64,000 nucleotides of DNA, from positions 90,036 through 154,035 of the forward strand of contig JAUHZC010000002.1 of NCBI GenBank assembly GCA_030425805.1. Direction: 5' to 3'. Origin of the DNA: Alphaproteobacteria bacterium (GTDB lineage: Bacteria; Pseudomonadota; Alphaproteobacteria; JAUHZC01). The translations under genes and the position numbers were made by a program. The number at the start of each line of letters is the position of its first letter. Position 1 is the stretch's first letter. Positions 41,587 to 52,008 of this stretch are shown one piece after another. The notes under the pieces are model-generated. The model saw only the letters and a program-made list of their open reading frames with translations, was not told the origin of the DNA and ran no database searches.

Positions 41587-42039
41587 ATGAGCATGACAGC
41601 GCGTAGGAAAATTATGGAGAAAGTGAGGGCATTCGTAGGTAGCCCTCAGGAAATTCCTCATAAAGGATGGATCCGTGCGCTGAGGGAATCCCTCGGCATG
41701 ACAACAACACAGCTTGCAAAAAGAATTGGCATTTCTCAACCCGCCCTTGTACAGCATGAGAAAAGAGAAGCCTCAGGTTCAATAACAATACAGACGCTTA
41801 GGAAAGTTGCTGCAGCCTTGAATTGCAAACTTGTCTATCACTTTGTCCCAAATGAAGACCTTGAGGCTTATCTTGAACGCAACGCTAAGGAAAAGGCCAT
41901 ACAAATTTTAAAAAAGATTGAGCACTCAATGGCTCTAGAAAATCAATCGATTTCTAAAGAAGAATCTCAACACCAGCTGGAGGAGCTCATTCGAGAATTA
42001 AAAGAGAGTCCCAAAAAAATATGGGAAAAGGATGACTGA
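41587..42039 (+). CDS. Mobile mystery protein A (Xre HTH)
   Basis: PHKGWIRALRESLGMTTTQLAKRIG, EHSMALENQ. Confidence 0.93.
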   Translation: MSMTARRKIMEKVRAFVGSPQEIPHKGWIRALRESLGMTTTQLAKRIGISQPALVQHEKREASGSITIQTLRKVAAALNCKLVYHFVPNEDLEAYLERNAKEKAIQILKKIEHSMALENQSISKEESQHQLEELIRELKESPKKIWEKDD

Positions 42040-42619
42040 ATTTTTTCAAGTCGATTCGGATGCAACGCCTCTTCAGCCTGAGGAAATTGAAGATCTGAAG
42101 CTCTCCTACATTTCAACAAGAGATGAGCTTAATGCTGCAGAACAAGCAAACATCCTAAAGGGGTTGAAATGGGCGCATACCTCTAAGGTACCTCTCCTTT
42201 CTGAAAAATTTCTTAAGCAGCTGCATAAGAAAATGTTCTCTGATGTTTGGAAATGGGCAGGTTCCTACCGAAAAACAGCCCGCAACATTGGTGTGGAGGC
42301 ATATCTGATACCAACTTCAATATCTCAGTGTCTAGATGATACCCAATTCTGGATTAGCAACGAGACCTTTTCAAAGAAAGAGATCATTGCAAGATTTCAT
42401 CATCAACTTGTCTATATTCATCCCTATCCAAATGGAAATGGGCGTTTTGCACGATTAGCTGCAGACCTTCTATCAAAAAAGCTTGTAGTCAATAAGCCCA
42501 CCTGGGGAGGCAGTAATCTTGCCAAAGCAACAGATATAAGGAAGCAATATATCCATACCCTACGGGTGGCTGATCAGCATGATATGAACCCTTTAATAAC
42601 CTTCATGTGGCAATTTTGA
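42032..42619 (+). CDS. Mobile mystery protein B (Fic domain)
   Basis: ATPL..EE, LNAAEQANI, VWKWAG.YR, Fic motif HPYPNGNGRFAR. Confidence 0.93.
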   Translation: MTEFFQVDSDATPLQPEEIEDLKLSYISTRDELNAAEQANILKGLKWAHTSKVPLLSEKFLKQLHKKMFSDVWKWAGSYRKTARNIGVEAYLIPTSISQCLDDTQFWISNETFSKKEIIARFHHQLVYIHPYPNGNGRFARLAADLLSKKLVVNKPTWGGSNLAKATDIRKQYIHTLRVADQHDMNPLITFMWQF

Positions 42620-43354: not shown

Positions 43355-44196
43355 TGTCAGCCACCCTTATCAATGGAAAAACGCTCGCGGCGAATATCGC
43401 TCATACCTTGCGTGAGACGATCAAGAAGACACCTGGTCATCCCACCTTGTGCGCGATCCAAGTTGGAGAAGACCCCGCCTCCCAAGTCTACCTAAGGGCG
43501 AAAGCCAAGGCCTCAGAAAAGGTCGGTATCCAATTTTGCCGGGTTTCCCTGAAAGCTGATGTTGATCTCTCAGAGATTCTCTTTCAAATCCAAGAACTGA
43601 ATAAAGACCCGAAAGTTCACGGCATCATTGTTCAGCTTCCTCTACCAGATCCTGCTATGGTCCCTGCAGTGATTCAGGCCATTGCTCCTGAAAAAGACGT
43701 GGATGGCCTCCACCCTCTGAATCAAGGACGTCTCTTTTCTGGGGATTACAGCGGGATGATTCCTTGCACACCACTTGGTTGCCTTGAATTGATTCAATCT
43801 GTAGAACCTCATCTTTCTGGAAAGCACGCTGTCGTCGTTGGTCGCTCAGTCCTGGTCGGACGCCCCATGACACAGCTTCTTTTAGCGCAAGACTGTACAG
43901 TCACCCATTGCCATGGCAAAACAGTAGATCTTGCCGCCCATACCCGCCAAGCTGATATTCTTGTGAGTGCTGTTGGAAAACAAGGTCTGATTACAGCTGA
44001 CATGGTAAAGCCTGGTGCAACTGTTATTGATGTTGGCATTACCCGGGGAGAAACCCAGGTCATTGGAGACGTCCACCCAGATGTGGTCCAGGTTGCCAAG
44101 GCCCTCACCCCCGTTCCCGGAGGTGTGGGTCCTATGACTGTCATTGGGCTCATGGAAAACACTGTCCGAGCCTGGCAAGTTCAAACAAGGGCGTAG
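43354..44196 (+). CDS. folD: Methylenetetrahydrofolate dehydrogenase/cyclohydrolase
   Basis: VQLPLP, KDVDG, PCTPLG, TPVPGGVGPMT. Confidence 0.97.
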   Translation: MSATLINGKTLAANIAHTLRETIKKTPGHPTLCAIQVGEDPASQVYLRAKAKASEKVGIQFCRVSLKADVDLSEILFQIQELNKDPKVHGIIVQLPLPDPAMVPAVIQAIAPEKDVDGLHPLNQGRLFSGDYSGMIPCTPLGCLELIQSVEPHLSGKHAVVVGRSVLVGRPMTQLLLAQDCTVTHCHGKTVDLAAHTRQADILVSAVGKQGLITADMVKPGATVIDVGITRGETQVIGDVHPDVVQVAKALTPVPGGVGPMTVIGLMENTVRAWQVQTRA

Positions 44197-45275
44197 CCTT
44201 TTCCCCTTATTTGACTCTGAACCAACCGATATCCCGTCAAAATGATGAGTCCTGGGTAAAGAATTTCAAGGATCGGCGCAAGGAACCTGGAAATCCCTTG
44301 AAAATCTAGCGTTGAGAAACAAAATGAAATTGCCAACGTCCCCAGAAAACACCATCGAAAAGGGAGCTTCAGCTGGCTCTGGATAAACTCTGCAAAAAGA
44401 AAAGCCAACACTGAGGCCGTTGTGAGGCAGGCCAAAGAGACTGCCAAGCAAAGGAGGCTTTTGCTATAGGGACCAAGTGCATGAGCCGCAATAATACCGA
44501 GAAAATGTTGTGGCGCCGCCCCTTCTAAAAGCGGTGCGTAAGCTGCCCCCAGGTATACAAAACTTGTATACACTCCGATAAAAAGGCAAAGTGCAAGAAG
44601 CAGACTCCCCCCAAGAACAAACTGCTGTTCTTTTTTGGGGATCGCTTGACTTTGCAAATAGTCATAAATCACTTTTGCAAAAAAGAAAGCCGCCAGAAGA
44701 TCCATTGTCTCATATCCCACCTTAAATCCTGTCCACAAAGAGACATGAGATGGTGTCGTCATTTGCATAGGCGGCTGTGCTTTATAGAGCCCTGCAAAAA
44801 TAATGCAGAAAATCCCAATCAACAATCCAGGCGTCAGATACTTCCCAATTGCCACCATCAAGGTCTCTCGCCGCAAAGCCAGGAAATAAATCAGAATGCA
44901 GGCACATAAACTAAAGGCCATTATCGGAAGTTCGATGCCGAAATTCAAAAAGCTTCCATAAGACACTGTAATACACCGTGGCACCACTCCAAAAGGCCCT
45001 AAAAGACTGAGGAGTAGAAAAGACAATGCAATTGAGAGACGCCTTCCGAAAACATCAAAAAAGTCTCCTTTAAAAAGAAGAACGCTCAGTACGCCTAAAA
45101 AAGGCAGAAAAACACCGGCAAGAATGACACCAAGGCTGGCCCAGGGAAACCCTGAGAGACTTTGTGTTCCCACAACTAAGGGAAACACAAGGTTTCCCGA
45201 GCCAAAAAACATTGCAAAAATGGCGAATCCAATCTTGAGGGTTTGCCCAATATGATAAGAAAAAATAGGTTTCAT
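44181..45275 (-). CDS. brnQ: Branched-chain amino acid transporter BrnQ (LIVCS family)
   Basis: FAMFFGSGNLVFP, GPFGVVPR, GYETMDLLAAFFF, LACLTTA, LEILYP. Confidence 0.92.
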   Translation of the reverse strand: MKPIFSYHIGQTLKIGFAIFAMFFGSGNLVFPLVVGTQSLSGFPWASLGVILAGVFLPFLGVLSVLLFKGDFFDVFGRRLSIALSFLLLSLLGPFGVVPRCITVSYGSFLNFGIELPIMAFSLCACILIYFLALRRETLMVAIGKYLTPGLLIGIFCIIFAGLYKAQPPMQMTTPSHVSLWTGFKVGYETMDLLAAFFFAKVIYDYLQSQAIPKKEQQFVLGGSLLLALCLFIGVYTSFVYLGAAYAPLLEGAAPQHFLGIIAAHALGPYSKSLLCLAVSLACLTTASVLAFLFAEFIQSQLKLPFRWCFLGTLAISFCFSTLDFQGISRFLAPILEILYPGLIILTGYRLVQSQIRGKGYALV

Positions 45276-45326
45276 CGTCCGTATCCATTACGAAATAAAA
45301 ATTAAAATAGAAATATAAAATGAGGG

Positions 45327-45362
45327 GAAAAAAGGCGTAGGTCGGCGTTAGCCGACGACGCG
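45327..45362 (-). terminator. Attenuator-type terminator overlapping the leader stop codon
   Basis: Minus strand GCGT-c-GTCGGC-TAAC-GCCGAC-ct-ACGC-c-TTTTTT. Confidence 0.7.
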
Positions 45363-45416
45363 GACGACGACGGAGACAACAGGAGAGTTTGAAAGGATGA
45401 AGTGTTGTCGATCCAT
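45348..45416 (-). CDS. Val-rich leader peptide of brnQ (22 aa, MDRQHFILSNSPVVSVVVRVVG)
   Basis: AAGGTGAG RBS 7 nt before ATG; 7 Val in the last 10 codons; directly upstream of a BCAA transporter. Confidence 0.8.
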   Translation of the reverse strand: MDRQHFILSNSPVVSVVVRVVG

Positions 45417-45486
45417 AATGAAACTCACCTTAACGGATTTTAGTCTTTTCTCCAAGGAGATTATGCAACCCCCTTTCAGGGGGCCA

Positions 45487-46782
45487 TTACGACTGTGGGG
45501 ATTTCTCAGTAATTTTCAGGAGGGTGATCTGATTTCCCACACGGCGCAGGACCTCAATTTCAAGGTTATGGATCACAAAAATTTGACCCATCTCAGGGAT
45601 AGTCATGGTCTCCTCAAGAACTAGCCCGGCAAGGGTACTGGCTTCCTCATCAGGAAGTTCCCACTCAAAACGACGATTCAGATCACGGATCGTGACCTTA
45701 CCATCGACCATGATCTCGCCCTTTTTGTTCACAAAGATATTGGACTCATCCTGGTCTGTCTCATCTGTAATATCACCCACAATCTCTTCGAGGATATCTT
45801 CCAGAGTGAGCAAGCCCTGAATATCGCCGTATTCATCTACCACAAGAGCAACGTGTTCTCCGCGCTTTCTAAAAGCATGCATCTGACTCAGCAGCGTCCG
45901 GGTTTCTGGCACAAACCAGGGTTTTGAGGCCAGACCCAACACATCTATACTCTCAAGCTTGACCTTTGTTTTTGACGTCACAGCCCGAATGAAGGACTTC
46001 ACATGAAGAATCCCCACGATGTTATCTTGGTTATCAATATAAATAGGAACACGCGTATAAGGGCAATCCAAGATCTGGCGTACAATCTCTGACGCAGGAA
46101 GCCCTCCATCGACACAAAACATGTTTTTACGGTGGATCATCACTTCTTCCACAGCCACATTGCCAAGATCTAGGATACTCTGAAGCATTAACTGCTCATC
46201 CCGTGCCTCAACCCCAGAACGACCATGGAGATCTATAATGCCCCTCAACTCTTCCACGGTATCTACAGTCTCTTGATCTGGAGATTTTTTGAGTCCAAAA
46301 AGCCGAAGGTTCATTCGGGCATAAAAATCCATAAACCGTGTCACAGGACTTGTGATAAAGAGAACAACCCTGACCATTGGGGAAACAATCACGGCATAAC
46401 TTTCTGCAAAGGTAATGGCTAAAATTTTCGGCAGAACTTCAGCATAGATCACTAAGGCCGCCGCCATCACCCCTGTAGCAATAAAAACACCGGCATCTCC
46501 AAACATCTCCACAAAGAGGTGCGTCGCAAGAGCTGAAGCAAAAATATTAATCAATGTATTACAAAACAAGATGGAGCTAATGAGAATCGGCAACTCCTGC
46601 TTCAAAAGCAAAACCCGAGAAGCCGCCACTGACCCCTCCTTTTCCATACGGTGCAATCGGACCTTAGATGCCGCAATGAAAGCTGTTTCTGTTCCAGAAA
46701 AAACAGCAGAAAGCAAAGTCAATCCAACCAAAGCAAGGGCCGAACCGTATTGTTCAAAAATGGAGAGAATTTGCTCTAACAT
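45487..46782 (-). CDS. HlyC/CorC (CNNM) family transporter
   Basis: SAVFSGTETA DUF21 TM domain, CBS pair, VVDEYG...TLEDILEEIVGDI, CorC C-terminus. Confidence 0.93.
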   Translation of the reverse strand: MLEQILSIFEQYGSALALVGLTLLSAVFSGTETAFIAASKVRLHRMEKEGSVAASRVLLLKQELPILISSILFCNTLINIFASALATHLFVEMFGDAGVFIATGVMAAALVIYAEVLPKILAITFAESYAVIVSPMVRVVLFITSPVTRFMDFYARMNLRLFGLKKSPDQETVDTVEELRGIIDLHGRSGVEARDEQLMLQSILDLGNVAVEEVMIHRKNMFCVDGGLPASEIVRQILDCPYTRVPIYIDNQDNIVGILHVKSFIRAVTSKTKVKLESIDVLGLASKPWFVPETRTLLSQMHAFRKRGEHVALVVDEYGDIQGLLTLEDILEEIVGDITDETDQDESNIFVNKKGEIMVDGKVTIRDLNRRFEWELPDEEASTLAGLVLEETMTIPEMGQIFVIHNLEIEVLRRVGNQITLLKITEKSPQS

Positions 46783-46803
46783 ACCACGCCATCATACCTG
46801 TAT

Positions 46804-49035
46804 TTATGATTGTCGCCTAGAGGATCTTTGCTGCTTCTGAAGCTCTTCTCTTGTGGGAATGCGTTCAATATCCTGATAAGAAAAGCGCTCTCCTGTCTGC
46901 GGGTCAATGCACAATAAATGAACCCATTCATTGCCAAAAAGCCTTTGAAGAACCTCTTGCCGATGAATCACTTTCTTCAGCCGCGCTACAGGAGCATAAA
47001 CCACCGTCAGTAACCTTTGTGGCATATGATACAGCTTGTTATCCCCTGCATACACAGACTGAAGCGGCAAGCCTGTCATAAGATCACTCCCATTTCCCTG
47101 CATCACACTATGCTTACCAACAATATTTTTTGTGACCTTGCTCCCGCCACCGTAGGCAACATTATTAAGGCTGGAGAAAAAATATTGCATATTAATCCAC
47201 TGGGCGACAACCATGGGAGCCGTCAAGATTGTCTCTAAAATAGCACCATCCTTGTCCTGCTCCCAGTCATAGGAATGAAGAAAGGTGCGCCCTTCCAGAT
47301 CCATGCTTGTTGTAATGGAGCGGGGTCCCACGATAAAGGCAGCATTTTGAGCCAACCCCCATTCTGGGCGAATCTGAGCCCAATCCCAAGCGTAGGAGCG
47401 AACACGCTTTCCTTTTTTGCGTCGAACAGGGAGTCTTTGAATGCGTTCCCCAGAAACCTCTTGTTGTGCCTTCTGAAGGTCTTCCCGGATTTCTTTTAAG
47501 GCAGGCAGTGATGCAGCCTCCCCAAAAAGAGAGATATCATCAGTCGTTGTATTGTGTTGTGCCGCCAAAAACGTTACGTCCTCTAGAATACGGATCCCTC
47601 TTTGGGCAAGCTGCTCCCTCACGCTCGGCGTATTCAAAATCTGCGCAAGAATCTGGGCATTATCACCCCCTTGATGCCCCGCACATGCTCCACAATCCAA
47701 GGCCGATGCATAAGCATTGTTCTGGGTTTGGCTACCATGACCACAGAAGATGACATACTTTGCAAAGTTATGGGTGAGTCCCATACCCCGCAAAGCATTC
47801 TCTGCCATATCACACTGCATTTTGAGAGGAATCCCAGAAAGATCAAAGGGAGCCACATGCCTGCGCCTTAAATACCCAACAACAGAATAGAGGGCTCCGG
47901 TTATGCGCGGAAAGAGTGTCCGCATCCCCATCCAGAATCCTGAGAGAGGCCCCAGTGTCTCAACCAACGCAAGAGGCGCTGTAAAAGTATATTTCAGAGA
48001 TTGATAGAGCCTTTTGAAGGTTGCGGAGCTTAACCGGGAACGTTTCTCCAATCCTGGCTCTTCCACCATATGTTCTGGCTTAAGCAAAACAGGGCAAGCT
48101 GCATAAGGCGCGCGCTCCCCTTTTTTCTGAAGTGCGACCGGTACTCCAAAAAAACCAGCAAACCCAAATGTCTCATAATTTCCACGAGCCTCAATAGCCC
48201 GACGCATGGGTTCTGACCGCACATCGATACAAAAGACAAGTTGTGCCTTGAGAGGATAATCAGGTTTTGCCTGAGGATCTCCTGTTTCAAGAAGCGTTAA
48301 AAGATGTTCTTGGTAAGTCTCTTCTGCTGCAATAACCTCTTTTAAAATTTTTTCCCTCCCAAGAGGAGTCTCTTGTTTTTTCAAAAGAACGGAAATTGGT
48401 TTTTCTTCAGGCCAAAGCAGCGCTAGGATTGCAGCTCTCAAGGCAACAAACTCAATCTTCAAAGATTTTTTCTCTTGCCCAGACCAGTCCTCAAGATATT
48501 TCACATGAGCTGCCCACCCAGGAAGTGTTGCTAAGAGGAGTGTGAGAAAGTGTCCCCAATCTTCCCGCTTTAGACCCAACCGGATAAAACTTGAATGTAA
48601 AACCCCTTCAGGCAAATCTGGCAGGGATTGAATCCAGGAGGCCGCATTTTTATCTTTGCCCACAAGCTCTGCATCATAAACAGCCAGCCTTTTCCAAGCC
48701 TGCAAAAGACCCTGATCGCGCAAAGGCATTTCAATTGTGGCCTGCCCTTCATCAAAGAAAGCCTGGAAGTACTTAATGGAGATTGTATTTAACGTCAAAA
48801 TTTCCTGGGGGAAGGAGGTTTGCTCATAGAGCTGCGCCCCTTTCTCAAGAGCCTCAGAAAAAGACAAGTCCTCAAGTCCCTGAAGAGGATTGACAGCAAT
48901 CAAGCTCTGAAGCGGCCAAAAAGGAGCCACCAGGCGCCAGGAAACTTCATTTAACCCATGAAGCTCAGAGAGAGACTCCTCTCTTTGAGGAGTTTGAGTC
49001 TTTTTACTTTTTTGTTGAGAGGTAACAATTTTCAT
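46804..49035 (-). CDS. dabA: DabA/MpsB (DUF2309) inorganic carbon pump subunit
   Basis: WPL..IAVNPL, FCIDVRSE, ETFGFAGFFG, GHGS, LDCGACAG, RPEWGLA, FLHSYDW. Confidence 0.93.
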   Translation of the reverse strand: MKIVTSQQKSKKTQTPQREESLSELHGLNEVSWRLVAPFWPLQSLIAVNPLQGLEDLSFSEALEKGAQLYEQTSFPQEILTLNTISIKYFQAFFDEGQATIEMPLRDQGLLQAWKRLAVYDAELVGKDKNAASWIQSLPDLPEGVLHSSFIRLGLKREDWGHFLTLLLATLPGWAAHVKYLEDWSGQEKKSLKIEFVALRAAILALLWPEEKPISVLLKKQETPLGREKILKEVIAAEETYQEHLLTLLETGDPQAKPDYPLKAQLVFCIDVRSEPMRRAIEARGNYETFGFAGFFGVPVALQKKGERAPYAACPVLLKPEHMVEEPGLEKRSRLSSATFKRLYQSLKYTFTAPLALVETLGPLSGFWMGMRTLFPRITGALYSVVGYLRRRHVAPFDLSGIPLKMQCDMAENALRGMGLTHNFAKYVIFCGHGSQTQNNAYASALDCGACAGHQGGDNAQILAQILNTPSVREQLAQRGIRILEDVTFLAAQHNTTTDDISLFGEAASLPALKEIREDLQKAQQEVSGERIQRLPVRRKKGKRVRSYAWDWAQIRPEWGLAQNAAFIVGPRSITTSMDLEGRTFLHSYDWEQDKDGAILETILTAPMVVAQWINMQYFFSSLNNVAYGGGSKVTKNIVGKHSVMQGNGSDLMTGLPLQSVYAGDNKLYHMPQRLLTVVYAPVARLKKVIHRQEVLQRLFGNEWVHLLCIDPQTGERFSYQDIERIPTREELQKQQRSSRRQS

Positions 49036-50384
49036 GAGGAGGCCTCTTCAGTATAGGCATATAAATTTCGGTGAGGTGTTAGTGTTCCAGGGGCTGGCTG
49101 GCTACGATTCAGCCCTCGCATATAAAGCTTAAGGAACCACTCAGACTGCATGCCTTTTACCATCAACTTCTCACGGAATAAAAATCCTGACCAAACCAGG
49201 AACAAGGTAAAGGCAGCCCCGAAATGTAATAGGCTCAAGGGGTGTGGCTGCATAGCTCCTAGAGGAGAGAGAAAGCTCTCAATTGTTGAAACACTATATC
49301 CATAACCAGCGCCAACCAAGGCTGTCAAAACGGCAACAGGAACAAAGCGCTTGAGCAAAGAAGTTCTCAAAAGAGTCAACGCAAATTGTGCCCCAGCAAC
49401 AGTCGTTAAAAAGAGTAGGAAAGTGCGGGTATCCATAGCTTTCCAAGAATAGCCACTCATCTCACAAAAGCCATAACTTGCCCCAATACCACAAATGATA
49501 GCCACAACAAAGGCTTCAACAGTCGGAGTCACCTGCTTATCATAGCGATTTTCCTGAGCCGCCCCACCGGATGCCAAGAACAAATATGCTTTGAAGAAAC
49601 CGTGCCAGCAAAGGTGCGTTACTGCTGCTGGAAAGAGCCCAAGCCCGCACTGGACGATCATGAACCCCATCTGGGACATTGTCGAACAGGCTAACATTCG
49701 CTTGACATCACTTTGCAAAAGTTTCCAGAAAGTCCCCAGAACGGTTGTGAAAATTCCAACCATAAACAGGATAGAAAGGGCTTCTCCTTCCCCAAAGAGT
49801 AAGGGGGAAAAACGCACCAGCAAAAAGCCACCCCCGTTCACAAGCCCTGCATGCATCAAAGCAGAAACTGGAGTTGGAGAATTCAAAGAGCTTAAAAGCC
49901 ACTTGTGGAAAGGCCAAATTGCAGACTGTACCATCGCCCCCAAGATTAAAAGAGAAAGTACTAGGACTTTTGACCATCCATCAAGTCCATAGAGAAAAAT
50001 CCACTGGAGTGAGGTCTCCCCTGTTTCAAAAAACATTAGAAAAAAGGCACCTCCTATCAGCACCCCCCCGCTCCCAAGCATACGCCCAGCTAAAACACCA
50101 GAGGCCCGAGCCGCAGCCCAAGAAGACTTGTGAATCATGAGCCGCACAAGGAGATAATTGCTCACCATCCAGGCTACCCAGAACAGCGCTAGATGATCTG
50201 AAGAAACCATCAAAAGGAGTGCAACGACCAACCCGGCCAAACGGAGGAAGAAGCGGCCAAAAGCCTGATCTCCCCTTAGATACCTTATAGAAAAGCTCCC
50301 GATAATGAACGCAATAAAGCTGATGAGCCCTGCAGTGAGAATCGCAAGTTCATCTATATTCAAAAGAGCGGTGAAGGTTTCCAT
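49032..50384 (-). CDS. dabB: DabB/MpsA membrane subunit (NuoL/MrpA-like)
   Basis: PFHKWL, PTPVSALMHAG, LACSTMSQMGFM, HGFFKAYLFL; ATGA overlap with dabA. Confidence 0.9.
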   Translation of the reverse strand: METFTALLNIDELAILTAGLISFIAFIIGSFSIRYLRGDQAFGRFFLRLAGLVVALLLMVSSDHLALFWVAWMVSNYLLVRLMIHKSSWAAARASGVLAGRMLGSGGVLIGGAFFLMFFETGETSLQWIFLYGLDGWSKVLVLSLLILGAMVQSAIWPFHKWLLSSLNSPTPVSALMHAGLVNGGGFLLVRFSPLLFGEGEALSILFMVGIFTTVLGTFWKLLQSDVKRMLACSTMSQMGFMIVQCGLGLFPAAVTHLCWHGFFKAYLFLASGGAAQENRYDKQVTPTVEAFVVAIICGIGASYGFCEMSGYSWKAMDTRTFLLFLTTVAGAQFALTLLRTSLLKRFVPVAVLTALVGAGYGYSVSTIESFLSPLGAMQPHPLSLLHFGAAFTLFLVWSGFLFREKLMVKGMQSEWFLKLYMRGLNRSQPAPGTLTPHRNLYAYTEEASS

Positions 50385-50547: not shown

Positions 50548-52008
50548 ATGAAGTTCTTATTAGCTTTTCTTTTCTCTCTTTATTTCATCATACCCGTACA
50601 AAGCAACGCTGCTACTCTAGAATCTCTTCCCCCAGGACCTTGCTGTCATCTCATTGAACACTTAGACCCAGGTGCAATTCTTGCTCTGTTGCAAACCTCA
50701 AAAACCATCAGAACGCAAGTAAGCTCTGCCTTTTTTGAAAAGCACTTCAGAACAACTTTTCAAAAGCTTCTTAGGGAAGAATATGTTCCCCTCTCCACCC
50801 AAGAACAACTCGTTGCTTTCTTAAATTGTCATCCAGAACAAAAAGCTCGGGTCCTTAAAGACTGCGTGGAAAAGGCAAAAGTAAGAGGATATCTTTTCGT
50901 GCCCTTCATATATACAAGTAACCCACGTCACGGTAGGCGCATTGGTTTTTTTGGCTTTGCCAATACTTTGATTAGTGAATGGCCATTTGGCGCCCCCTCT
51001 AAAGGCTTATTTATGCCCTCAAATGATTTTTTCATAGACCTTTTTAGAAAATATTCACCCGTTAATCCGGACCGAGGAGGAGATTGGGTAGCAAGGATGC
51101 GTGCTTCTTCAGGTCGCGAGCTTTTTGTGCACCCAGAGGCTTCCCCTGCACAACTTGAAGACTTAGCAAACCGACTTAGAAATGGGCACACTCGCCTGAG
51201 TGACTATCTTGCTCTTGAAGAAACAGAAGCTGGTCATGCGGACTCTACCTCTGGTGCCCCTCGAAAACGGGGACGACCTGATTTAGAAGAAGAAGTGGAT
51301 GATGGAGCAGCAAGCGCTGCAGGAGGAGGTGCAGCAACGCAAGCCCCTCCTGGTCAAACTTGGCAACAAAGGCTCCTTCCCTCTTATACCCCAAGAATTG
51401 TTGTTACAACAGCACAACTCTCCAGCCCTGTTGTATTCTCTGATCTCACACGCATTTTTACAGCTCACCCGGACTATGTCCTTGTTATAGATATTGAAGC
51501 AAATGATCCTCCGGAAGATGAGGATGAAGATGAAGATGATGAATTAAACAACAGCTTTGATCTTTCCTCTCTGAGAGGTCATATTCCAAGGTCCGTTAAG
51601 AGAATTGCTCTCTCTGACTCCAGCGATCGTGTGGAAATTCTACAAGGAACCTTTCCTCCAGAACTTGCAGATACTCTAGAGGTGGTTGATCTCTCAGGAA
51701 ACAGCGTTTTAAGGTGCTTTGGTGATGATAGCCCTTATTCTGCAGCATCTCCAGGCATTTTAGAAGGATTTACCCGGCTTAAAGTTGTGTGTCTACGAGC
51801 ATGTGGTTTTCTTGAATCTCTCGGCCCTCGATCCCTTCGCAACACACCTTTGCTGAAGGTCTTAGATCTAAGAGATTGTCCAGCCTTTGAAAAGCTTTAT
51901 CCTGATGCCCTTACAGGATCAGGTATTCCCCTTCCTGAGCATCCTGAATCAGCCTTCCTGACAAGAACAGTTGGAAGTGTTGATGGCTCTGGAGGTGGTA
52001 CAGCCTAA
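50548..52008 (+). CDS. Exported F-box-like/LRR candidate effector
   Basis: AAGGA RBS, signal peptide, LESLP...HLDP...LLQTSK, PRKRGRP, acidic tract, C-terminal LRRs. Confidence 0.75.
   Translation: MKFLLAFLFSLYFIIPVQSNAATLESLPPGPCCHLIEHLDPGAILALLQTSKTIRTQVSSAFFEKHFRTTFQKLLREEYVPLSTQEQLVAFLNCHPEQKARVLKDCVEKAKVRGYLFVPFIYTSNPRHGRRIGFFGFANTLISEWPFGAPSKGLFMPSNDFFIDLFRKYSPVNPDRGGDWVARMRASSGRELFVHPEASPAQLEDLANRLRNGHTRLSDYLALEETEAGHADSTSGAPRKRGRPDLEEEVDDGAASAAGGGAATQAPPGQTWQQRLLPSYTPRIVVTTAQLSSPVVFSDLTRIFTAHPDYVLVIDIEANDPPEDEDEDEDDELNNSFDLSSLRGHIPRSVKRIALSDSSDRVEILQGTFPPELADTLEVVDLSGNSVLRCFGDDSPYSAASPGILEGFTRLKVVCLRACGFLESLGPRSLRNTPLLKVLDLRDCPAFEKLYPDALTGSGIPLPEHPESAFLTRTVGSVDGSGGGTA

Follow-up and report, generated by a model that had tools for sequence, protein, structure and literature searches.

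A valine-rich leader reading frame ending in a stop-codon hairpin precedes the brnQ importer gene of an alphaproteobacterium and recurs before brnQ in distant bacteria

We describe a putative leader-peptide switch located immediately 5' of brnQ, the gene for a branched-chain amino acid (BCAA) importer, in a 64,000-nucleotide (nt) stretch of the genome of an Alphaproteobacteria bacterium (GenBank assembly GCA_030425805.1, contig JAUHZC010000002.1, positions 90,036 to 154,035 of the forward strand), hereafter called the window. All coordinates are window coordinates, and the leader, its hairpin, the spacer that follows and brnQ are all on the minus strand. A short open reading frame (ORF) with a run of valine codons ends inside a GC-rich hairpin, which is followed by a G-depleted spacer and then by the brnQ start. 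This anatomy is rare in its own genome and is conserved before brnQ in distant bacteria. The Val-rich leader before brnQ is most likely a real, conserved leader-peptide switch, and we consider it probable that a ribosome-read gauge of charged tRNA-Val here controls the sole BrnQ-type importer found in a small genome in which no valine synthesis genes were found.

The leader ORF has 22 codons and a stop, and its frame translates as MDRQHFILSNSPVVSVVVRVVG* (45348..45416). A Shine-Dalgarno (SD)-like sequence, AAGGTGAG / AAGGUGAG (45424..45431), can be read 7 nt before the leader ATG at 45416. The stop codon TAA is at 45350-45348, and 72 nt lie between it and the brnQ ATG at 45275. Seven of the last 10 codons of the leader specify Val, one as GTT and six as GTC, and the putative regulatory run is formed by codons 13-21 (V V S V V V R V V; 45354..45380; GUU x1, GUC x6). 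A preliminary description of this DNA, made from its sequence alone, had reported the ribosome-binding site, the Val-rich minus-strand frame and its distance from brnQ, and all were confirmed to the base.

To place the Val run in its genomic context, we translated the 1.41-Mb genome from stop to stop in six frames. Only one of the 119,228 frames has at least six Val in its last 10 codons, and that frame is this leader. Its codon usage is also distinctive, in that GTC accounts for six of the seven Val codons compared with 18.6% of the 20,306 Val codons in long frames genome-wide. Because the Val run is unique in the genome and carries this GTC bias, the Val-rich upstream frame is not due to chance. 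The genome has one tRNA-Val(GAC) and one tRNA-Val(UAC), and tRNA-Val(GAC) is presumably the reader of the leader GUC codons.

The putative regulated gene, brnQ (44181..45275, minus strand), encodes a short-type LIVCS/BrnQ carrier of 364 amino acids that matches PF05525 (Branch_AA_trans, E 6e-51) over residues 11-358 of 364. It is the sole Branch_AA_trans gene found in the genome, which is assembled in 12 contigs totaling 1.41 Mb and is estimated to be 91% complete. Searches of this 91%-complete assembly detected neither an IlvD nor an IlvC domain, while the controls were positive in 14 of 14 reference genomes. The result is compatible with valine or general BCAA auxotrophy of the host, which the preliminary description had considered probable.

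We then asked how widely the leader occurs before other brnQ genes. The window BrnQ is a divergent protein. A BrnQ homologue is present in 6 of 61 class-level genomes, with 35-41% identity outside the window's own genome. A metagenome scan with BrnQ returned 19 loci whose full-length identity is 36-43%, and one further match of 54% limited to 93 residues; a scan of species-representative genomes using an alignment of 13 proteins returned 80 brnQ loci. The latter are labelled Legionella, Berkiella, Paracaedibacter, Finniella, Odyssella, Rickettsiales, various Alphaproteobacteria and a few others. The window BrnQ is 32-39% identical to the relatives of about 380 residues in the alignment of 13, which are of the short BrnQ type, and up to 53% identical to the protein of locus L028. 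Going by record labels, short BrnQ proteins (L003, L009-L107) occur at 35-45% identity in Legionellales, Holosporales-like, Rickettsiales-labelled, Opitutia and Chlamydiales genomes. Sequence comparison suggests that the gene, perhaps together with its leader, has been exchanged among intracellular bacteria.

The preliminary description had taken the window frame to be a translated, Val-sensing leader and had proposed looking for Val-rich upstream ORFs before brnQ orthologs. Within the 350 nt that precede each brnQ, we searched for short frames whose ends lie 15-160 nt from the gene, using 50 dinucleotide shuffles as the control. At least three Val in the last 12 codons were found at 45 of 93 distinct brnQ loci, compared with a mean of 3.5 (maximum 8) in the shuffles; at least four were found at 28 loci (0.7 in shuffles) and at least five at 18 loci (0.1 in shuffles). 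The Val-rich leaders come from Legionella, Berkiella, Paracaedibacteraceae, Finniella and Rickettsiales-labelled genomes, and our own loci place the device in two proteobacterial classes (Legionellales; several alphaproteobacterial lineages). The sole Chlamydiales-labelled locus in the set, L032, has no Val run. Examples of leader tails in relatives are ..LAVVVVVVAPAAI*, ..FNVVVVVA*, ..NIIVVVIIVG*, ..PVVVVVTVAV* and ..SQVVVVA*. The last 14 residues of the leaders are 31.6% Val, 14.3% Ala and 10.5% Ile, and GUC makes up 87 of the 211 Val codons across leaders. This preference for GUC could reflect use of a starvation-sensitive isoacceptor rather than pairing, the idea being that isoacceptors are differentially charged under starvation.

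A second test was blind to reading frame: loci were chosen only by the presence of a GC hairpin ending 35-80 nt before brnQ, which selected 33 of the 93. All 33 have a frame open for at least 10 codons that stops in or just after the hairpin (one such frame in 30 loci, two in 3). The hairpin-stopping frame contains on average 2.89 Val in the 12 codons before the hairpin, compared with 0.17 in the other frames. Such frame-specific enrichment argues that the frame is read as protein, rather than being a mere G/U-rich RNA strand. With the frame, the Val run and the stop at the hairpin recurring in dozens of distant loci, the sequences support the proposal of a translated Val-sensing leader before brnQ.

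These loci have a common anatomy. A run of Val/Ile codons leads into a GC hairpin, the stop codon lies inside the hairpin or just after it, and a low-G spacer of about 50 nt separates the hairpin from the brnQ start, ahead of which relatives usually have a GGAG-like SD. Of the 45 Val-rich loci, 41 have the hairpin. Its 5' arm begins with the last Val codon, and its commonest form is GUGGCC-loop-GGCCAU; the window, L054 and L030 have GUCGGC-loop-GCCGAC (GCCGGC in L030), and L012 has GUGACC/GGUCAC. The leader stop is either in the loop or one codon past the 3' arm, the latter position giving a recurrent ..VAPAAI* ending. When 33 sequences were aligned, the hairpin positions could pair in 80% of alignment cells, compared with 25-54% when partners were slid, and three pairs were changed on both sides. 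Compensatory changes include those among GUGGCC/GGCCAU, GUCGGC/GCCGAC and GUGACC/GGUCAC.

A covariance model built on the Val run and hairpin was run on both strands of 71 held-out brnQ loci (236 kb); at E<=1 it matched 10 times, each time just upstream of brnQ. The same model produced 5 non-self matches at E<=0.01 in 150 class-level genomes, of which one is a true brnQ leader (L110) and three are inside Val/Ala/Ile-rich coding regions of unrelated genes. The model was thus rejected as a genome-wide detector, being unspecific outside brnQ loci because Val/Ala/Ile-rich membrane-helix codons mimic it. The fifth match, L112:1501-1555 (plus strand, 29.1 bits), has the translation ..SAVVTVVAVVAV* and stops at a GUGGCC..GGCC-like hairpin; neither brnQ nor any other plus-strand gene is downstream of it, and a minus-strand ORF overlaps it. 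Rfam gave no match at E<=10 in window positions 44000-47000 and none at the gathering score in 16 related loci.

The hairpin in the window, GCGU-c-GUCGGC-UAAC-GCCGAC-cu-ACGC (45335..45361, minus strand), has codons 19-22 as its 5' arm, and the leader stop TAA forms the first three bases of its loop. One C after the hairpin there is a U6 tract (45328..45333, minus strand), and the two together resemble a terminator. The hairpin folds at -15.6 kcal/mol (z -4.6), a value equalled by 1 of 200 shuffles, and the longer stretch that runs from the Val codons to the brnQ start has a folding energy of -30.4 kcal/mol, which none of 200 shuffles matched. The earlier statement that the last codons and the stop codon form a hairpin followed by six U residues was thus borne out. 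Its internal loop kept the hairpin off the list of a simple terminator scan of the window; judged by its predicted fold, the hairpin with U6 is a credible intrinsic terminator. Folding the leader to look for alternative structures gave only this single hairpin and a long-range helix, with no antiterminator or pause hairpins and no alternative partner for the hairpin 3' arm in the window folds, in agreement with the preliminary description, which had seen no obvious separate antiterminator.

Between the hairpin and the brnQ initiation region is a U/C-rich, G-depleted spacer (45289..45334, minus strand), in which the G fraction is 0.04 in the window. Across 41 loci the spacer averages 5.1% G, compared with 17.2% further upstream, and is lower in G than the upstream sequence in 40 of the 41; its C content is 22.8% over about 50 nt. 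Segments of 53 nt with two or fewer G make up 0.19% of the window's own genome. Spacer length in relatives is usually 45-57 nt, and the distance from hairpin to brnQ is nearly constant, 53-78 nt, across loci. The low-G composition fits what would be expected for Rho loading, and rho is present in the genome. Neither this conserved spacer nor the complementarity between Val codons and brnQ start region, to which we now turn, was part of the preliminary description.

Minimum-free-energy folds of the window predict that codons V16-V18 and R19 serve as an anti-initiation strand, UCGUCGUCC(G) (45361..45370, minus strand), whose partner is the brnQ translation-initiation segment (C)GGACGAUGA (45272..45281, minus strand), which includes the AUG at 45275-45273. 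The predicted helix UCGUCGUCC:GGACGAUGA has 9-10 bp, is stacked on the hairpin and covers the brnQ start codon. Similar leader:start pairings are present in folds of many relatives. When the last 54 nt of each leader were compared with each start region, the best contiguous helix scored 16.4 on average with the leader's own start region versus 14.6 with those of other loci, a mean reached by 2 of 20,000 permutations; duplex energies were -13.9 versus -12.6 kcal/mol, reached by 17 of 10,000. The brnQ loci are related to one another and are not independent, so these permutation figures overstate the significance. In ensemble folds of 34 loci, the start site pairs mainly with the Val run, though hardly more than with a shuffled Val run (0.257 and 0.193, respectively).

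We also modelled a ribosome as a 28-nt footprint that keeps the RNA unpaired, and shifted it along the leader. In the window, opening the brnQ start costs 14.0 kcal/mol, and a footprint on the Val run lowers this cost by 5-6.8 kcal/mol; averaged over 34 loci, the reduction is 1.5-1.8 kcal/mol (median about 0.3-0.85). Footprints placed 45-75 nt further upstream had about no effect on start-site opening. The pairing is predicted to be strong in about 40-45% of relatives, and on these folds a start-codon lock in the window and in part of the family is probable.

Fine-scale conservation was judged from one low-depth strain variant, the metagenome relatives being distant. Two sequencing runs of other samples contain low-depth contigs about 95% identical to the window, one of which, 255 nt long at a depth of about 3, spans 45153-45407. 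It differs at 11 positions, and 7 of these are listed as lying clear of the contig ends. V14 is changed synonymously from GUC to GUA, one change is in the internal loop of the hairpin, three C/U exchanges are in the spacer, where U6 is kept and no G is gained, and two changes are at third-codon positions in brnQ. The hairpin stems and the start-site helix are unchanged. As support for a conserved structure this variation is weak, because the differences are few and the depth is about 3.

From these features we infer that the leader is translated and in which direction it responds, as well as the relative weight of termination, Rho and start-site masking in the following scheme. The 22-codon leader would be translated from its own ribosome-binding site, and its Val codons would form one strand of two helices, namely the hairpin with the stop in its loop, followed here by U6, and the helix at the brnQ start. 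With ample charged tRNA-Val, the ribosome would complete the leader and leave at the stop, allowing both the hairpin and the start helix to form. Transcription would then stop at U6 in this genome, or Rho would reach the untranslated, G-poor spacer, and any read-through mRNA would keep the brnQ start codon paired and yield little BrnQ. A ribosome reaches about 12-15 nt past its A site. When charged tRNA-Val is scarce, the ribosome would wait on codons 16-21 and cover the 5' arm of the hairpin and the anti-start strand; with both helices held open, transcription would continue, the brnQ start would be exposed and more importer would be made. Since the response would be more importer when valine is short, the logic would suit an auxotroph.

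Only tentatively do we extend this scheme to a distinct, horizontally spread type of gauge. In this extension the regulatory codons would themselves be the anti-start strand, so that a Val-starved ribosome unmasks the start of the importer gene, and a stop-in-hairpin plus a G-free spacer of Rho or standby type would replace the usual terminator and antiterminator. The cassette would travel with short-type brnQ among amoeba-associated and other intracellular bacteria, giving auxotrophs a regulator-free link from tRNA charging to uptake.

Several results weigh against the proposed tRNA-Val gauge or parts of it. A search of sequencing runs listed no RNA run that contains this DNA, and a sigma-70 promoter scan between corC, the gene upstream of the leader, and the leader called no promoter. 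Across the family, leader SD energies do not discriminate between in-frame ATGs (-1.49 kcal/mol) and out-of-frame ATGs (-1.74 kcal/mol); leader and brnQ starts in relatives were picked by rule and some are wrong, the pick in the window being an upstream TTG and not the ATG with AAGGUGAG. No Val-rich leader was found upstream of brnQ in the same-family genome L005 (in L006, also of the same family, the contig breaks off 57 nt before the brnQ match), and L028, a metagenome-assembled genome labelled uncultured Alphaproteobacteria with the closest BrnQ homologue (53%), has neither a Val run nor a GC hairpin at this locus. For the start-site helix, a footprint gains more than 1 kcal/mol at 13-16 of 34 loci and about half gain less; the Val-run share of pairing exceeds that of the shuffled run in just 19 of 34 loci; and the window's helix score of 25 was reached by shuffled start regions in 17 of 1000 cases and by shuffled leaders in 71 of 1000. 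The notion that Val codon choice tracks complementary start-region triplets was rejected (Spearman 0.13, -0.11, 0.23 and 0.09, none significant). Overall, the long-range helix is moderately supported by these models. As for termination, the window spacer is 57% U and its U6 may partly reflect composition, and a U-rich tail follows the core hairpin stem at 1 of the 45 Val-rich loci, the window's own being among the 45.

L028 does have another short frame before brnQ. This frame of 14 codons, MIFQSLLLSFLLLF*, has 7 Leu and ends about 46 nt before brnQ (match at 1201; region about 1100-1200). It may be a Leu-sensing counterpart, or it may be a chance frame in AT-rich DNA.

The scarcity of U tails bears most directly on the mechanism first put forward, a single-hairpin transcription attenuator. 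If this were the whole device, the complementarity of Val codons to the start would be a by-product of the GUC repeat, and the insignificant triplet correlation and the dinucleotide-preserving leader shuffles that reach the helix score are what such a by-product would give. In the window the proposal stands to the extent that a credible terminator is present, with its -15.6 kcal/mol hairpin, the C and U6 that follow, and a 5' arm made of codons 19-22. With a U-tail at 1 of 45 loci, however, the conserved core of the device must be something other than intrinsic termination. On the U-rich-tail test of the core stem the window reaches 4 of 8, its U6 coming after an extended stem that is not present in relatives, and inspection of relatives' folds by eye for extended stems reaching distant U runs found nothing convincing. 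Moreover, leaders fit their own start sites better than those of others, and with the stop in the loop a terminating ribosome would also block the hairpin, making the scheme leaky. We therefore regard a pure single-hairpin attenuator as improbable. A stronger competitor, though one we still consider unlikely to be the real switch, is Rho-dependent attenuation like that of tna and mgt, in which the spacer loads Rho, the position of the ribosome at the leader end or the translation of brnQ decides Rho termination inside brnQ, and the hairpin and U6 are incidental. The low-G spacer with its excess of C over G, the near-constant distance from hairpin to brnQ, the lack of a U tract in most relatives and the presence of rho in the genome all favour it. 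Composition alone, however, is no proof of Rho binding, a tether or a ribosome standby site would just as well call for an unstructured spacer, and the window has a good predicted intrinsic terminator of its own. This explanation also overlaps the tRNA-Val gauge as a sub-mechanism rather than excluding it.

The two other explanations do without a codon-reading switch. The frame might instead matter for its product, a small hydrophobic peptide that either partners BrnQ in the membrane or arrests ribosomes in response to free valine, as TnaC does with tryptophan. Some relatives do have hydrophobic leaders of 30-60 residues (for example L011 and L012), and the stop codon lies beside a G-poor stretch, as in tna; TnaC is treated in PMC3902921. 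Yet the conserved part of the peptides is the Val/Ile/Ala-rich tail alone, which is partly set by the hairpin sequence (GUG GCC = Val-Ala), and lengths range from 8 to 81 residues among rule-picked starts. The window peptide has 22 residues with an Arg in its hydrophobic part, and the L019 peptide is largely polar, so we give a functional peptide very little credence. Least probable of all is that the frame is a chance ORF beside the terminator of corC with no regulatory role. It is true that corC is on the same strand and has no canonical terminator of its own, and that the hairpin after its stop has no U tract and varies between strains. Against this, the Val run is unique in the genome, and ORF, hairpin and spacer recur before brnQ at loci where the neighbouring genes differ.

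The gene corC, of CNNM/CorC type (45487-46782, minus strand), is upstream of the leader on the same strand as brnQ, and folD is downstream of brnQ in convergent orientation. Directly after the corC stop there is a hairpin, GGCCCCC-UGAAA-GGGGGUU (45467-45485, minus strand), without a U tract; five of its bases differ in the related strain, with no obvious compensation, and no change is listed for 45426-45470, between this hairpin and the leader SD. Within corC, foreign contigs from four sequencing runs stack on about 90 nt (45756-45850) to a depth of up to about 135, compared with 14 elsewhere, with 5-14 mismatches. This pile-up represents a conserved CorC/CBS-domain segment common to abundant unrelated community members and is not a feature of this genome. 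Just upstream of corC (46804-50384, minus strand) are a DabA gene (PF10070, E 2e-212) and a DabB-like (Proton_antipo_M) gene, probably an inorganic-carbon pump in this 1.4-Mb genome. Overlapping HTH_3 (XRE-type) and Fic/DOC-domain (PF02661, E 1.5e-14) genes at 41587-42619 (plus strand) have a layout like that of a toxin-antitoxin or 'mobile mystery protein' module. An ORF of 486 residues at 50548-52008 (plus strand) has a signal-like N terminus, an acidic Asp/Glu run and a repeat-looking C-terminal part, and gave no Pfam match at E<=0.001.

Leader-peptide attenuation is textbook tuning of amino acid synthesis, and here it would be wired to uptake. The hosts appear unable to make valine and live inside other cells, where the regulation of import is poorly understood and loss of the classical regulators is common. 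Small and self-contained, the device has been conserved across Legionellales, Holosporales-like and Rickettsiales-labelled genomes. It is missing the antiterminator architecture that is used to find attenuators computationally, which may explain its absence from Rfam. If the start-codon pairing is real, it would provide a clean natural example of starvation-sensing translational attenuation and a compact part for synthetic valine sensors. The leaders also flag a class of unannotated small ORFs for genome annotation.

A full-text literature search, with subscription journals and supplements outside its coverage, turned up no paper that reports a leader peptide or attenuator ahead of brnQ. Passages of a 2018 review of BCAA physiology (PMC6123439) place leader peptides upstream of biosynthesis genes, count chlamydial BrnQ among the transporters and give Legionella pneumophila as a BCAA auxotroph; in these passages no leader peptide ahead of a transporter is mentioned. 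In the relevant part of another paper, Shewanella brnQ is under TyrR and attenuators are located before biosynthetic operons (PMC3223726).

The closest parallel in peptide sequence is the ivbL leader of Escherichia coli. The annotated K-12 ivbL translates to MTTSMLNAKLLPTAPSAAVVVVRVVVVVGNAP*, so the VVVVRVVVVVG tract cited for it in the preliminary description holds, and both IvbL (..AAVVVVRVVVVVGNAP*) and the window leader have a VVV-R-VV..G pattern. Like ivbL-ilvBN and ilvL-ilvGMEDA, the window has a short leader with a run of Val (or Ile/Leu) codons that would report the supply of charged tRNA, and a hairpin and U tract before the structural gene. The E. coli ilv attenuators control biosynthetic operons, whereas the window leader precedes an importer in a genome in which IlvC and IlvD were not found. 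The window leader has none of the alternative 1:2, 2:3 and 3:4 hairpins of classical attenuators; its stop codon is inside the single hairpin, while the terminator of ivbL is well downstream of the stop; and nearly all relatives of the window leader are without the U tract that classical attenuators have.

Other leaders share parts of the proposed logic. The leaders of tnaC-tnaAB and mgtL-mgtA are Rho-dependent and sense free Trp or Pro-tRNA/Mg2+ through conserved peptides or alternative stem-loops. Like them, the window leader ORF ends beside a G-poor, C-rich untranslated stretch in a genome that has rho; unlike in tna and mgt, a role for Rho here is a conjecture from composition. In Firmicutes, T-box leaders precede BCAA transporter genes and the importer is induced by uncharged cognate tRNA. 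The logic is the same as that proposed for the window leader, but T-box RNA binds the tRNA directly, and Rfam searches of window positions 44000-47000 and 16 related loci gave no T-box match. In the translational attenuation of erm and cat genes, a ribosome stalled in the leader ORF opens a stem in which the start site of the downstream gene is buried. Another start site opened by an upstream ORF is that of a Salmonella Mg2+ transporter (PMC8092293). In these systems, as predicted for the window, a strand of the leader ORF masks a downstream start, here with Val codons masking the brnQ AUG. The erm and cat leaders stall ribosomes on a drug or a peptide, whereas the window leader would stall them at a codon run when charged tRNA is short and, unlike in erm and cat, its regulatory codons are themselves predicted to be the anti-start strand.

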